From a virus: a stretch of DNA of 25,199 nucleotides. The translations under genes were made by a program, and so were the position numbers. The stretch lies in the UHGV virus genome UHGV-0245202; one strand, given 5' to 3'. Of this stretch, positions 6,665 to 11,503 are shown piece after piece; within the stretch, counting starts at the first letter, position 1; each line of letters opens with the position of its first letter. Below the pieces are notes generated by a model, which was not told the origin of the DNA, did no database searches, and was given only the letters and a program-made list of their open reading frames with translations.

Positions 6665-8638
6665 TCACCTCCATTTAAACCGAGGTGAATATTCACCGTT
6701 ATTGAATCTTCCTATACTTACCTGTATTGTCGCCGGAGAATCAGAAAGAACCTCGGTGCTATGCAATGATAGTATAAGTGATGATGATTCTATATCTCTA
6801 TCTATTTCGATCACATAACCATAATCTCGTTCTGGCTCTGTAAAATAAGCTATTGGGTTTCCGTTTGCTGCAATGGTAAATCTTCCACCAACAAATTTAC
6901 CCTTGAACATAACATGTATTTTTATCCGACTAACTCCCTTCGGTAAAACACAACCAGCATTTAATGATGCTGTAGAGTTTATATTGAAATCTTTCCTTAT
7001 CACTGTGTATGGAATTGCATATAAAGCTTCAGCAAAGCTTGATTGAGACTGATACTCTGTCGCAGCAATAGAGCTCCCCCCCATAATTCTAAATCCTCCA
7101 ACACCGGAGAACACACTATTAAAAGCATCCACAGCTTTCGTAAAGTTACCAATACAAACGGGTGTTTCTGCATCATTAATGAATTGTTCCCTTGAATACA
7201 ATGTCACACTGTTTATATATGTACTTTTATAACCACCAATATCATCAGGGCTTAAAAATCCATACCCATTGGAACCATCAGATACGCCATTAAATTCTGT
7301 ATAATAGCTACAAAATTCGTTAGATGATCTTGGAGATGTCTCAATCCATCCAAATCCAAAATTTCTCTCTGACTGAATATTGCTATAAGTACACCCACTA
7401 CTCCGCGTTATAAGGCCTGCGCCACTATAGCGCGTCGCTGAGTCTGGTGATGGGTCAAAATCACCATTGCGACCATTTGTGTGTGTACGTATACGTAAAA
7501 AACTAACAGAATTTACAGCCAAATCATCAGTTTCTCCTTGAGTAGGATAACCAATAACAACTCCGCGCCCATAGTTATCATGTGCAACTATTGTTCCAAA
7601 TGAACAGAACCAAGACTGATAAACTGATATGCCGACGACACGAGCATTTATGGCTGTAATATTGTCGCAATGTGACTCATTTGTAAAATATCTAAAATAA
7701 AATCCATTTGTCGCCTTATTATCACAATCAGAAATTATATTTGTAATTCTTACTGAGCTTACATCTTCAGTTGGTGTAACTCCAATTGGAGAGCGAGAGC
7801 ATCTAATAACAGCCTTTTTAATTGCAACATCCCCAATCCATTTAATGGTTGTAGCAAATCTATTACCTGCTCGCAGAGAATTTCCATATCCTCTCATATC
7901 CAAGCCATTTGGAGGCACAAACTCATCTGTAATTCCAATAACACCAGCTGGAAGGATTAAAGGTAGTTTATTATCAGATGCGAATTTAGCAGCACTGGTT
8001 AACTCATTAATTGAATCTTTTTCTCCATTTAAATTAACCCCCCACCATTTTAATAGAACTTCTCCATTGATATTTCGTTTCCACCGCCTCCCAATTGCGT
8101 CAATAAGTATTGTTCCTCCATTATCTTGAGATGTAGAATCATACTTATCAATTTCAAATATTCCATTTCCACCATCAAATATATTTCGCACACCATATAC
8201 ATAGCATCTATGCATATTCCCGCTATAATTTCTAATATCTTCGTAATTTGCTCCACCTATATATCCCAAACCGAAGCTTTGAGATAATTGAACTTTAAAT
8301 TGATCAGGTTCATACTTCAGCACATTCGGAAAATAAAACTGCTGAGCACCGTATGCATCATAAACAGCCATAGAATGGCCTTGCACAGTTACGAACTTGG
8401 CAATCTGTCCGTTATATACCGGGTAACCAGCAGCGTTAATGATGATTGGTTGCGAAACAGGAACGTGAGAGCCGTCTTCGTTCTCCACATAAACCTGAAT
8501 CTGGTTTTCAGGATTTACAGGGTCAGTGTCAATTTTACCGATATAAATTTTGCCATTGGCTACAGCTTTAAAAGAACGAGCCATAGTGAAGAGTTGAGAA
8601 GGCATGCTTACCACAACATTTGCGGTGATATCTGACAT
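6665..8638 (-). CDS. Tailspike protein (gp9 position); P22-type N-terminal head-binding domain with a divergent receptor-binding domain
   Basis: 657 aa from the ATG at 8636-8638 (GGAG 9 nt upstream); the ORF track start at 8686 adds 16 codons with no RBS. The first ~110 aa ([11 protein letters not shown]...[21 protein letters not shown]...[13 protein letters not shown]...[10 protein letters not shown]) match the P22 gp9 head-binding domain from memory; the remainder does not resemble the P22 endorhamnosidase domain and is AT-rich. Confidence 0.85.
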
Positions 8639-8663
8639 TTCATTGCTCCAGACGAATGATATG

Positions 8664-8686
8664 ATGCAATCACGATGTGATTGCAT
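8664..8686. promoter_or_regulatory. Perfect 23-bp palindrome, candidate operator (Mnt-type) between mnt and the tailspike
   Basis: ATGCAATCAC-GAT-GTGATTGCAT: 10-bp arms that are exact reverse complements around a 3-bp centre, in the 121-bp divergent gap between the tailspike ATG (8638) and the mnt ATG (8760). Confidence 0.4.
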
Positions 8687-8759: not shown

Positions 8760-9020
8760 ATGTACAGCAAATACGACGAGGCGCAGTTTCACTTGAGACT
8801 TCCGCATGAACTCCACGCGAAAATTAAGCAGCGTGCGAAGATGAATAACAGGTCGCTGAACTCAGAGATAATTGCAGCGATTGAAGAATCATTGGATAAA
8901 CAAAGCTCTGCATCAGTTTACATTGACGATGCAGAGCGTATGGCAGAACAACAATCGGATATGGTTAAGAAAATTGTCTTTGATACGCTCAAGAAGCTAT
9001 ATAAAAAAGACAGTAGCTAA
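8760..9020 (+). CDS. mnt: Mnt-like ribbon-helix-helix repressor (immI-type)
   Basis: 86 aa from the ATG at 8760 (GGTGAGG upstream); the ORF track start at 8727 adds 11 codons. N-terminal RHH beta-strand motif (FHLRLPHELHAKIKQRA...GRSLNSEII) and a C-terminal tail DAERMAEQQSDMVKKIVFDTLKKLYKK matching the P22 Mnt tetramerisation helix from memory; located at the P22 immI position and transcribed opposite to the late genes, as P22 mnt is. Confidence 0.8.
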   Translation: MYSKYDEAQFHLRLPHELHAKIKQRAKMNNRSLNSEIIAAIEESLDKQSSASVYIDDAERMAEQQSDMVKKIVFDTLKKLYKKDSS

Positions 9021-9040
9021 CCATCCGTTACGGAGGATTT

Positions 9041-9118
9041 ATGCAAAGAGATATGCTGAATATTGCGTTCTACATATTTGGTTTTTGCACGTTCCTGGTG
9101 TTTGCGAAGCTATTCTGA
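9041..9118 (+). CDS. Putative 25-aa hydrophobic small protein (MQRDMLNIAFYIFGFCTFLVFAKLF); unannotated small ORF
   Basis: ATG at 9041 preceded by GGAGG (9032-9036, 4-nt spacer); 25 codons ending TGA at 9116-9118; a short polar N-terminus followed by a ~20-residue hydrophobic stretch. Lies 21 bp after the mnt stop on the same strand, and its 3' end overlaps the convergent gp16 stop codon (9110-9112). Below the 60-aa cut-off of the ORF track. Could be chance. Confidence 0.25.
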   Translation: MQRDMLNIAFYIFGFCTFLVFAKLF

Positions 9119-11503
9119 CAACGCATCAGACTTGGCACCCTGAGTAAGGGCGTTAATGGCCTTTTGCGCCTGCTGCATGGCTTTCTCAAACGCTGTTGAT
9201 CCGCGTGGGGTGTTTGCCATTCGGAGCATTGCATTTCTGAATGGCTCGCTCTCATAGGCGCGCGTAAGAAGTCCGTAGCTTACCGCTGCGCCAGTTGTCG
9301 CAGGGTTCATTGCTGTCCCATATCCGATAATGAACGGGATGGTTTGCTGCCCTGTTGGTGTTGTTACTGCCGCTTTTGCAGCCTGCTGCGTGGATTGCAG
9401 GTAGTTTTTCAATCCTTTCAGATAAGCGGCTTCCTGACCTTTAAATGTGATGCCAGTCTGGTTTTGCAGGATGTTAAGCTGTCGAAGGAACTGGTCAGGG
9501 GAACCACCTGATTTCTCCATCGCCTTTCCAATGATGCCATTGCGCATTTGCGCCCTGCCAACACGACCAACTGAGTTATACAGCGTCTTAATTTCCGATT
9601 TGTTCTTGCTGAATAGCATGTTGTTGACAACTTCCGGCGTCAGGTCGCCTTTCATGAGAACATTCTTCAGCCTGGTATTCTTTAGTTTCGCCGCTTCGTC
9701 AGCGTAGACGGCATTGGCCTGCTGATATTTACGGAGAGTATCGTTGCCAAGATTCTGACCAATGGCACCATTGATATCGTCGGTCATTGCCTTGTAAACG
9801 CGCTGAATGGCAGCATCGGAACGGTTTGGTAACACTGGTCGCTCCCCCTTCACGTCCATTCTGAACTGGCTGCGCAGATCGCTTAATTGCTTCAAATCCA
9901 GATTTACCGGACCATCAGGACCAGCATTGCGAACAAGCTCATCACGATAGGACTGAAGTTTTGAAATAGTCTCGTTATCAGCAACCTTACCAAGCTTCTG
10001 CAGGTTAGATATTTCTGTATCAATCTGCTGAATTGCTCTTGCAGGCTGAATGTTTATTCCCGCCATAGCATTCTGAACCTGCTCAAGACGGTTCCCTGCA
10101 GCACGACGAATTCCTGATGTTTTCGCTTTAAGGCTGTCAATAACAACAGCTGGATCATACTCACCGAATTTATCAGCAAATCTCTGCACCAACTGGCTTC
10201 TCGCTTCCTGTTGCGTTGCTCTCATTCCGCTTGTGCCAGCCAGGGGGATATTTTCCGCTGTCGTCTGCGCCATTTTTCCGACGCGGGAAATGGGTTGTAA
10301 CAGGTCTGTGGTGTGCAGAGGAACTCCTTCACGTTCTGCAAATCTGATAGCCTGTTGCGCTTCTGGTGCTATCGAACCACGAACACCACGATAAGCAGCG
10401 CCTAATCCACGTCCGGCAGCGTTAATAGCACCGCCAGCCAGCACACCAACGCCTAAATCGGTGGCGAGTGCTTCCGCATCATCTTTCGCACTGTTTGCAG
10501 CAAGTGATCCAACTGCGTTTTCTGCGAGAAGGCGAGTTGCCCCCTGAGCAATTCGACCAGCAAGTGTTGGTGCCTGTGCTGCCGCTCTCTCAACGCCAGC
10601 AGGAGTGAGGTAAGGCAATGCTTCAGCAAATACCCTTCCCTCTGTCGTTTGTGGAGTCAGCGCGCCTTGCTGAAGGCCAAAGTCCTGCTCTAATCCCTGC
10701 GTTGTTACTCGTGGTGCTGGTTGATATGTACCATCGCCAATGCCGAGTTTACCGCCAGCCCAAGCCGCCGCGCTTGTTACAGCATCAGTGAGTTCAGCAG
10801 GTATGTTCGCTACGTTGATTCCTGCCTGTAGTAAGCCTCGCCCGGTTTCAGCAAGTCCATTACCAAGGTCAGACATTATTCCGCCTTGCTGCTGAACAGG
10901 TTTCGGTGCGACAGAACTTACGGGTTGAGGTGGCTGCTGACTGGCTGCCTGCTGCTCAATCTGAGCAAATGGATTATTTGGGTCTGACTGCACGCCTGAT
11001 GCCGATACTTGTTCGGATGACTGTGCTTCCAGTTGTGCAAACGGGTTGTTAGGGTCTTGCTGAGGATGTACCTTTGCAGAGGTGGCGCGCTGTTCGACTG
11101 TTGAGTCTGTCACCGGGTCACCCGCCCATTGAGCAAAGCGATCATCAACGTAACCGCGGCCTTCAGGTCCTGGCGTATATTCACCACGCTTTGCCTTCAT
11201 AACGTTGCCGGGACCGTCGTGATAAGCCTGAAGAGCGTCACGCCAGTTACCAAACTGCTGGTACATCTTTGCCAGATAGCGCGCGCCAGCGTCAGCCTGA
11301 TATTCGGGGTTTTGCATTTGCTCATCGGTATAACCCATATCACGCCATGTCCCAGGCATGACCTGAGTCAATCCTACAGCCCCGGCGGAGCTTACTGCGG
11401 CAGGGTTGTAAGAAGACTCCTTGGCACCCAGTGCAGTCATCAACCCTTCTGGCACACCGTAACGTGCGCCAGCCTGCTCTAACAAATCACGGTAATTAGC
11501 CAT
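9110..11503 (-). CDS. Ejection (DNA-transfer) protein at the gp16 position, with an N-terminal lytic transglycosylase (SLT) domain
   Basis: 797 aa; last gene of the gp7-gp20-gp16 ejection block by position. The N-terminal ~130 aa carry family-1 lytic transglycosylase motifs (GAKESSYNPAAVSSAGAVGLTQVMPGTW ... ALQAYHDGPGNV); this is followed by a Q/P-rich linker with a duplicated DPNNPFAQ(L/I)E motif and a long Ala/Gly-rich C-terminal region. Start codon abuts the upstream stop (TAA at 11504-11506, ATG at 11501-11503). Confidence 0.85.
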   Translation of the reverse strand: MANYRDLLEQAGARYGVPEGLMTALGAKESSYNPAAVSSAGAVGLTQVMPGTWRDMGYTDEQMQNPEYQADAGARYLAKMYQQFGNWRDALQAYHDGPGNVMKAKRGEYTPGPEGRGYVDDRFAQWAGDPVTDSTVEQRATSAKVHPQQDPNNPFAQLEAQSSEQVSASGVQSDPNNPFAQIEQQAASQQPPQPVSSVAPKPVQQQGGIMSDLGNGLAETGRGLLQAGINVANIPAELTDAVTSAAAWAGGKLGIGDGTYQPAPRVTTQGLEQDFGLQQGALTPQTTEGRVFAEALPYLTPAGVERAAAQAPTLAGRIAQGATRLLAENAVGSLAANSAKDDAEALATDLGVGVLAGGAINAAGRGLGAAYRGVRGSIAPEAQQAIRFAEREGVPLHTTDLLQPISRVGKMAQTTAENIPLAGTSGMRATQQEARSQLVQRFADKFGEYDPAVVIDSLKAKTSGIRRAAGNRLEQVQNAMAGINIQPARAIQQIDTEISNLQKLGKVADNETISKLQSYRDELVRNAGPDGPVNLDLKQLSDLRSQFRMDVKGERPVLPNRSDAAIQRVYKAMTDDINGAIGQNLGNDTLRKYQQANAVYADEAAKLKNTRLKNVLMKGDLTPEVVNNMLFSKNKSEIKTLYNSVGRVGRAQMRNGIIGKAMEKSGGSPDQFLRQLNILQNQTGITFKGQEAAYLKGLKNYLQSTQQAAKAAVTTPTGQQTIPFIIGYGTAMNPATTGAAVSYGLLTRAYESEPFRNAMLRMANTPRGSTAFEKAMQQAQKAINALTQGAKSDALSE

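Follow-up and report, generated by a model that had tools for sequence, protein, structure and literature searches.

A conserved micro-protein gene convergent to gene 16 of P22-like prophages, with a possible role in superinfection exclusion

The window analysed here is a stretch of 25,199 nucleotides (nt) from the virus genome UHGV-0245202, in which a P22-like (Lederbergvirus) prophage of Escherichia coli is represented by its left end. The element under study is a 25-codon open reading frame (ORF) on the plus strand at 9041-9118, located between mnt and a convergent gp16-type gene and encoding a short hydrophobic peptide. By position, the closest described system is SieA of phage P22. In P22, sieA is convergent to gene 16 and lies 22 nt past the gene 16 stop, and comparison of the P22 map with the window agrees with a first-pass annotation of this DNA, which had placed the ORF in the slot where P22 carries sieA. 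Both genes share a slot immediately past gene 16 and convergent to it, on the strand expressed by the prophage and next to mnt. SieA blocks DNA injection, and substitution of gp16 residue P546 or G532 lets P22 escape it (Leavitt et al. 2024, mBio, PMC10883804); these positions align with the region in which phage BTP1 acquires the escape mutations described below. SieA differs in being a 164-amino-acid (aa), ~19 kDa inner-membrane protein with no detectable sequence relationship to the 23-25-residue peptides considered here, in that escape from it also requires changes in gp20, and in pairing with the P22-type gp16, whose identity over the C-terminal 200 aa is only ~36%. A tblastn search with SieA detects P22-type phages only, and the window ORF has no homology to it. 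Among phage records, 41 bear SieA and ~38 bear the small ORF with zero overlap, the two genes being alternative, mutually exclusive occupants of one slot in these records.

By locus, the closest system is STnc6030, a 786-nt transcript of the BTP1 prophage that is highly expressed in lysogens, with a mean of ~90 transcripts per million by RNA-seq, and is antisense to the tailspike gene's 5' end and to the 3'-terminal part of the gp16 homologue STMMW_03891 (Owen et al. 2020, Microb Genom, PMC7067206). Cloned behind the constitutive promoter PLlacO-1 (pPL-STnc6030), it confers total immunity to BTP1 and none to P22, while the titre of the induced prophage is unchanged, a result that its authors called unexplained (PMC7067206). 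Escape phages carry four single-nucleotide polymorphisms (SNPs), all non-synonymous, within 36 bp of STMMW_03891; Northern blots show a dominant species of ~480-500 nt, and coding potential was dismissed for want of an ORF longer than 60 aa (PMC7067206).

The window holds the orthologous locus, in which a predicted prophage transcript antisense to the late genes would likewise extend through the tailspike-gp16 spacer into the 3' end of the gp16 gene, and the C-terminal 200 aa of BTP1 gp16 align over their full length with the gp16 of the window. STnc6030 differs in being described as non-coding and in its mapped start inside the tailspike gene; mnt takes the place of its upstream part in the window, where the promoter of BTP1 is not conserved, and the peptides encoded by BTP1 and the window, of 23 and 25 residues, share ~40% identity. 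Placed from the published supplementary coordinates and primers, the STnc6030 insert occupies positions 1095-1880 of BTP1 locus L214. Ahead of the mapped 5' end (L214 1060-1095), TTGAAT-17-TTCAAT can be read as a candidate promoter, antisense to the coding sequence of the tailspike head-binding domain. At the aligned position (8290-8330), the window has TTTAAA...TTCAGC, and on this comparison the internal promoter of STnc6030 is probably not shared.

Membrane proteins of a resident phage that stop genome entry of related phages are also represented by HK97 gp15 and T4 Imm, and resistance to this type of exclusion arises when the conduit-forming protein, injected or of the tail, is mutated. Both proteins are several-fold larger than the window peptide, unrelated to it in sequence and encoded at other genomic positions. 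In size and layout, the peptide resembles type I toxins (Ibs, Ldr, TisB, Hok) and small membrane proteins (AcrZ, KdpF, MgtS), which span 19-50 aa, consist of a single hydrophobic helix with a short polar end and are routinely skipped by gene callers; type I toxins further share an overlapping antisense transcript. The window peptide has no sequence match to such families, and, unlike type I toxin genes, its gene is phage-borne, tied to a virion gene and opposed by a long phage late mRNA instead of a dedicated small RNA.

A conserved reading frame at the 3' end of gene 16

The landmarks of the gene are as follows.

9041-9118, plus strand: micro-protein gene of 25 codons with a predicted single-pass hydrophobic product, MQRDMLNIAFYIFGFCTFLVFAKLF (sequence reading and translation, family conservation)
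9032-9036, plus strand: Shine-Dalgarno (SD) sequence GGAGG, 4 nt 5' of the ATG (sequence reading)
9110-9118, both strands: 9-nt tail-to-tail overlap of the micro-protein gene and the gp16-type gene (sequence reading)

Re-reading and translation reproduce the coordinates of the first-pass annotation for the SD sequence, the ATG (9041-9043), the 25 codons and the TGA stop (9116-9118), and its observation that the 3' end of the ORF overlaps the convergent gp16 stop is borne out. The last three codons of the ORF coincide with the stop (TAG, 9112-9110) and the final two codons of the gp16-type gene, so that Leu-Phe-stop on the plus strand is Ser-Glu-stop on the minus strand, and the CTA-TTC core of this overlap is retained across all classes of the family. 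The start codon lies 20 nt downstream of the mnt stop (9018-9020), and a scan of the intervening sequence finds no terminator-like site. The grand average of hydropathy of the peptide (Kyte-Doolittle) is 1.20, rising to 1.89 for residues 5-25, and places it among small hydrophobic peptides. It is composed of a polar head, MQRD, a hydrophobic helix of ~18 residues that includes Asn7 and Gly14, and a Lys near the C-terminus, and is predicted to be a single-pass micro-protein of the inner membrane. The start signal alone is not beyond chance, with one GGAGG-N3-9-ATG in the window against 4.2 expected in shuffles, and a length of 25 codons is by itself unremarkable.

To avoid bias, conservation was assessed in loci found solely through the C-terminal 200 aa of gp16, of which 172 were evaluable. 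An in-register ORF of 23 or 25 codons is present in 170, and locus L223 also holds an intact copy, giving 171 of 172; the sole locus lacking the standard ORF, L305, carries a divergent version with a different N-terminus. Homologues that differ at up to 37 of 60 nt still keep frame, start and stop. The hosts are Escherichia, Shigella, Salmonella, Klebsiella, Erwinia and Pseudescherichia, and named carriers include Salmonella BTP1, L/ST64T/ST104, g341c, MG40 and SPN9CC, Klebsiella phiKp_30, Candidatus Erwinia dacicola and Pseudescherichia. The layout, on the strand opposite gene 16 with the last codons over its stop, is common to the window, Sf6, BTP1, L, phiKp_30, Erwinia and Pseudescherichia. 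In Sf6, which has no mnt, an intact copy, MQRDLLNIAFYIVGFCTFLVFAKLF, lies in the 164-bp spacer that separates the tailspike gene from gene 13, the counterpart of gp16.

In the family alignment, M1, N7 and G14 are invariant and R3, A9 and F10 are at least 90% conserved; the window peptide matches all six. The consensus reads MxRDLLNFAFLIFGxxVGxxLFA, and the window peptide follows the motif M-x-R-D-x-L-N-x-A-F-x-I-F-G with a hydrophobic tail ending in L-F. These peptides form an undescribed, widespread family of 23- and 25-residue forms, encoded tail to tail with the 3' end of the Sf6/L/BTP1-type gene 16.

The conserved block begins at the gene itself. By megablast, similarity to phages including Sf6, Gally and VSe13 sets in at 9040, a single base 5' of the ATG. 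This boundary is also present in ~190 of the 308 matching E. coli genomes, and similarity to Sf101, which has a different injection gene, ends at 9028. In E. coli strain L65, the locus is 99.5% identical to that of the window. Upstream of the ORF, four neighbours alternate: mnt directly (44 loci, the window's arrangement); mnt and then a lipoprotein gene of 161-173 aa (E. coli prophages); a spacer shared with the divergent tailspike gene (55 loci, including BTP1 and Sf6); and orf62, divergent from the ORF (L, ST64T and P6). The ORF is thus a modular unit that persists behind different neighbours while its attachment to gene 16 is constant. The sequence GAGGAT(T/G)T-ATG recurs in most homologues whatever the upstream neighbour, including the window, E. 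sp. E1V33, Erwinia, BTP1 (GGAGGGTTT), L (CGAGGATTT) and phiKp_30.

Substitutions were counted along a minimum spanning tree of 77 unique sequences over codons 1-20. A pattern-based IMG/VR sample was left out of these tests, because its search pattern itself enforces the coding core. The tree contains 321 changes, distributed 76:34:211 over codon positions 1, 2 and 3. Synonymous changes number 204 and non-synonymous changes 112, where random placement expects 86 and 225 plus ~10 stops; synonymous changes are thus 2.4-fold above expectation, and none of the ~10 expected stops is seen. Conservation of the ORF in related prophages with synonymous-biased substitutions, which the first-pass annotation had proposed as a check, is therefore found. 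The ORF's own frame scores best among the six frames, and a control of 20 adjacent gp16 codons has a matching profile (231 synonymous to 108 non-synonymous; positions 72:29:240). By class, the omega-like ratios are:

23-codon class: small ORF 0.15; gp16 control 0.18
25-codon class (E. coli, the window's own): small ORF 0.54 (synonymous excess, P=0.007); gp16 control 0.07

The constraint on the window's 25-codon class is real and relaxed, most so at residues 2-8. The sequences of this class are 90-99% identical to each other, and a first count of alleles from E. coli only had given a weak coding signal (17 synonymous to 36 non-synonymous). A structured RNA as the cause of the conservation is rejected because a scan against Rfam finds no RNA family and folding of both strands against shuffled sequence gives no stability signal (z = -0.6 and -0.2) and no terminator. 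From these comparisons, the ORF is very probably a genuine gene.

The gene 16-gene 9 region of P22-like phages has been studied for fifty years, yet the gene is in no annotation examined. The records of Sf6, IME10, BTP1, L, P6 and phiKp_30 have no feature at its position, and PGAP calls none there in the 308 E. coli genomes. Scans of the peptides against Pfam, NCBIfam, PHROGs and PADLOC return nothing significant, the best scores, Adipogenin (E=0.1) and phrog_26923 (E=0.04), being dismissed as noise. Exact look-up of six peptide variants finds none in a collection of 15 billion protein sequences, the peptide string is absent from the full-text searchable literature, and an upstream-extended reading of 42 aa gives no homologue candidate. 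The genome paper of phage L lists only an mnt-like gene and orf62 in its 16-9 region and describes L as having no known sie genes. The 'orf25' of P22 strain genotypes was considered and set aside as a separate locus (orf25-orf80 region); in P22, sieA directly follows gene 16.

Two members of the gp16-based sample have unusual 3' ends or reading frames. In L223 (IMG/VR 3300014589_000009), the gp16 stop is lost and 10 extra codons (…ALSEKGDANTNAED) run antisense through the 3' part of the intact micro-protein ORF. In L305 (IMG/VR 3300044550_000158), the divergent member reads either as MNIAFVFLGLAFALLIKKLFS (21 aa, no clear SD) or as 51 aa from a TTG start, and the gp16 has an Ala-rich segment, PFVAAAAAIASPKF, at the position equivalent to the BTP1 escape stretch.

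A candidate superinfection-exclusion peptide

In BTP1, the family member MERDLLNFVFLIFGLVVGKLLFA, with its GGAGG SD, corresponds to nt 407-478 of the STnc6030 insert. The plasmid that conferred immunity therefore carried MERDLLNFVFLIFGLVVGKLLFA and its SD, because the cloning primers map to L214 1095-1880. STnc6030 thus holds a conserved ORF under purifying selection at nt 407-478, a feature at odds with its description as a non-coding RNA. The BTP1 escape stretch encodes ILGIGTVTNPALV, residues 61-73 from the C-terminus of gp16. On alignment of the gp16 C-termini, this segment includes the position of P22 gp16 P546, and an invariant Gly equivalent to P22 gp16 G532 is located 10 residues upstream of it. 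Across the family, the class of the peptide follows the class of the gp16 escape segment without exception. The 23-residue forms contain a GxxxG motif (G14-G18), and the gp16 segment is also Gly-rich. Its counterpart in the window is:

9293-9331, minus strand: gp16 segment IIGYGTAMNPATT, residues 61-73 from the C-terminus, proposed target of the peptide (equivalent of the BTP1 escape segment and P22 P546 region)

The best reading of these data, to which we assign a probability of roughly 0.55, is that the ORF is a genuine inner-membrane micro-protein gene whose product, SieA-like in effect but unrelated to SieA, blocks DNA injection. The narrower proposal that the 23-25-residue peptide, and not the RNA, is the effector of STnc6030 exclusion, disabling the gp16/gp20 conduit via the Gly-rich C-terminal segment of gp16, is held at about even odds. 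In the lysogen, the gene would be transcribed together with mnt from a promoter upstream of mnt, in a transcript running on antisense into gene 16. The peptide, inserted in the inner membrane, would disturb the conduit formed by the ejection proteins when a phage with a cognate gp16 infects. The contact site would be the Gly-rich hydrophobic segment at window 9293-9331, which by analogy with BTP1 is a putative target, and packing of the peptide GxxxG helix against this segment can be offered as speculation. DNA injection would then fail, and induction of the resident prophage would be unaffected. An exclusion peptide would explain why induction is indifferent to the plasmid, why the escapes change amino acids at the SieA-escape position, why the effect is specific for gp16 type and why peptide and gp16 classes are strictly co-inherited. 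The suggestion of an exclusion protein in the first-pass annotation thereby gains indirect support from the published BTP1 data (PMC7067206).

If this is correct, the peptide would be by far the smallest known phage exclusion protein, with one transmembrane helix, and would be present without annotation in hundreds of Escherichia, Shigella, Salmonella and Klebsiella prophages that currently count as lacking a sie gene. Phages such as L and Sf6, which have been described as being without sie genes, would have one, and a textbook-bound case of an "antisense RNA superinfection-exclusion factor" would have to be reinterpreted. A 23-residue helix would also serve as a minimal probe of P22-type ejection-protein passage across the inner membrane. 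A 60-aa ORF cut-off for calling transcripts non-coding can conceal micro-proteins.

Several points weigh against this interpretation. Translation of the family members is deduced from sequence comparison, and transcription in this E. coli prophage is predicted from a promoter that matches the consensus at only 9 of 12 positions. The window's E. coli class is only moderately constrained (0.54), with residues 2-8 free to vary, and two upstream contexts, the Sf6 type (GAGTTGAGTCT) and the lipoprotein context (AAAGGTATCGCCT), have a weak SD. The published explanation of the BTP1 phenotype is an antisense RNA (PMC7067206); the escape SNPs lie within the cloned transcript, 172-209 nt past the ORF stop, where base pairing could also account for them, and four non-synonymous changes out of four are statistically not telling. 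Physical linkage would be enough to explain the association of peptide class with gp16 class. In vitro, P22 gp16 was reported not to need its residues 476-609 for membrane association (PMC10883804), and contact between peptide and gp16 within the membrane is speculative for this reason.

The strongest competitor, though an unlikely one, is the published model itself, in which the STnc6030 transcript, running into the 3' end of gene 16, pairs with the late mRNA of the incoming phage and makes it unstable. The small ORF would then be a passenger or would merely load ribosomes and stabilise the RNA. The model is based on plasmid-borne exclusion, on escape SNPs clustered in 36 bp complementary to the transcript, and on exclusion of BTP1 but not of P22, whose sequence has no nucleotide similarity at this place (PMC7067206). 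In its favour, a transcript reading through the ORF would run on antisense into gene 16 in every genomic context. Against it, only the ORF and its SD are conserved upstream of gene 16, the other 400 nt of STnc6030 being replaced by mnt, the lipoprotein gene or orf62. Retention of ATG, length and stop in 171 of 172 loci would not be expected of a passenger, nor would changes dominated by third positions with an omega-like ratio of 0.15, equal to that of neighbouring gp16, and neither strand gives a folding signal. Decay of late mRNA should reduce the yield of the induced prophage, yet the yield is unchanged (PMC7067206). The dominant ~480-500-nt Northern species, if it starts at the mapped 5' end, would end ~20 nt past the ORF, short of the escape region.

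Somewhat less probable again is a dual function, in which the peptide works and the 3' extension of its mRNA additionally regulates gene 16 or the tailspike gene in antisense, for instance by silencing leaky late transcription in the lysogen. Coding selection on the ORF combined with an obligatory overlap with convergent gene 16 in all members would fit such an arrangement, as would the strong expression of STnc6030 in lysogens; gp16 coding, however, fully accounts for conservation 3' of the ORF, no RNA structure is conserved, and the present data demonstrate no RNA-level effect.

A type I toxin-like or holin-like peptide, restrained by the convergent late transcript and acting in addiction or abortive infection instead of an injection block, is very improbable. 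The short polar head, the single hydrophobic helix and the opposite-strand transcript overlapping the gene recall such systems, and the first-pass annotation had raised a type I toxin on this basis. The idea finds no support: the BTP1 homologue and its SD were present on a constitutive PLlacO-1 plasmid, lawns grew, phage titres were normal and no toxicity was reported (PMC7067206); the peptides match no toxin family in Pfam or NCBIfam and nothing in PADLOC; and no dedicated small antisense RNA, Rfam antitoxin family or structured element is found. Escape mutations in a virion ejection protein also indicate a block at entry, not abortive infection. Least credible is a chance spacer ORF retained through recent shared prophage ancestry, an option left open by the first-pass annotation and compatible with a GGAGG-ATG pair no rarer than chance and with the 90-99% identity and modest constraint of the E. 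coli class, since intact frames in 171 of 172 independently sampled loci and coding-type tree counts, upheld by the gp16 control and the class-specific ratios, exclude it, as do the retention of frame, start and stop in strongly diverged homologues, the absence of the expected stops and a mosaic junction exactly at the start codon.

Neighbouring genes and signals

The gene order of the window is mlaA, a focA-like gene, int, gtrA, gtrB, gtrII, tailspike, mnt, the ORF, gp16, gp20 and onward. The features flanking the ORF are:

8632-8660, plus strand: sigma-70-like promoter match CTGACA-17-AATGAT, candidate Pmnt (consensus scan, 9/12 matches)
8664-8686, no strand assigned: perfect 10+10 palindrome ATGCAATCAC-gat-GTGATTGCAT, candidate Mnt operator (inverted-repeat scan; P22 immI layout)
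8760-9020, plus strand: mnt homologue with Arc and Repressor_Mnt domains, upstream neighbour of the ORF (Pfam PF03869, PF11423)
9110-11503, minus strand: gp16-type DNA-ejection protein of 797 aa with an N-terminal SLT lytic transglycosylase domain (Pfam SLT; C-terminal alignment)

In this prophage, mnt and the ORF are probably co-transcribed, which is plausible because a terminator is absent and the gap measures 20 nt. The first-pass annotation had proposed co-transcription with mnt, and the proposal stands for the window; as a general property it does not hold, given the other upstream contexts. The match at 8632-8660 may be the Pmnt that drives both genes. In lytic growth, the late transcript would run antisense to the ORF.

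The palindrome at 8664-8686 sits between the tailspike start (8638) and mnt (8760), just 3' of the promoter-like site. By analogy with P22, this repeat probably serves as operator for the Mnt homologue; the prophage carries mnt without arc or ant. Inside the mnt coding sequence, at 8905-8937, lies another perfect inverted repeat of 10 nt, GCTCTGCATC ... GATGCAGAGC, whose loop measures 13 nt and which may be due to chance. The mechanical ORF of mnt begins at ATG 8727 (97 aa), while the Pfam domains and the similarity to P22 Mnt start at ATG 8760 (86 aa); this second ATG, preceded by GGTGAGG, is probably the correct start. In E. coli genomes, PGAP names this homologue 'Arc family DNA-binding protein'.

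The C-terminal 200 aa of the gp16-type protein align with gp16 of P22, Sf6, L, BTP1 and phiKp_30, and a gp20-type gene comes after its gene. P22 gp16 (609 aa) is without the SLT lytic transglycosylase domain of the 797-aa protein, and the PGAP labels of the latter vary among 'lytic transglycosylase domain-containing protein', 'DNA transfer protein' and 'P22-gp16 family phage DNA ejection protein'.

In many related prophages, exemplified by L125, L134 and L156 (E. coli, IMG/VR), the lipoprotein gene (MKKSLLIIPLLLVGC...) lies between mnt and the ORF on the same strand, ~520 nt upstream of the ORF. The predicted lipoprotein gene has the appearance of a moron and possibly provides another exclusion function. 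In Yersinia aleksiciae (NZ_CP011975, L209), the slot convergent to gene 16 holds a different ORF of ~42 aa (LEIASFVALAAIVYLIRQ..., with a coiled-coil-like tail), preceded by an AGGAGG SD and a hairpin terminator upstream, an arrangement which suggests that this slot is a general home for small membrane proteins.

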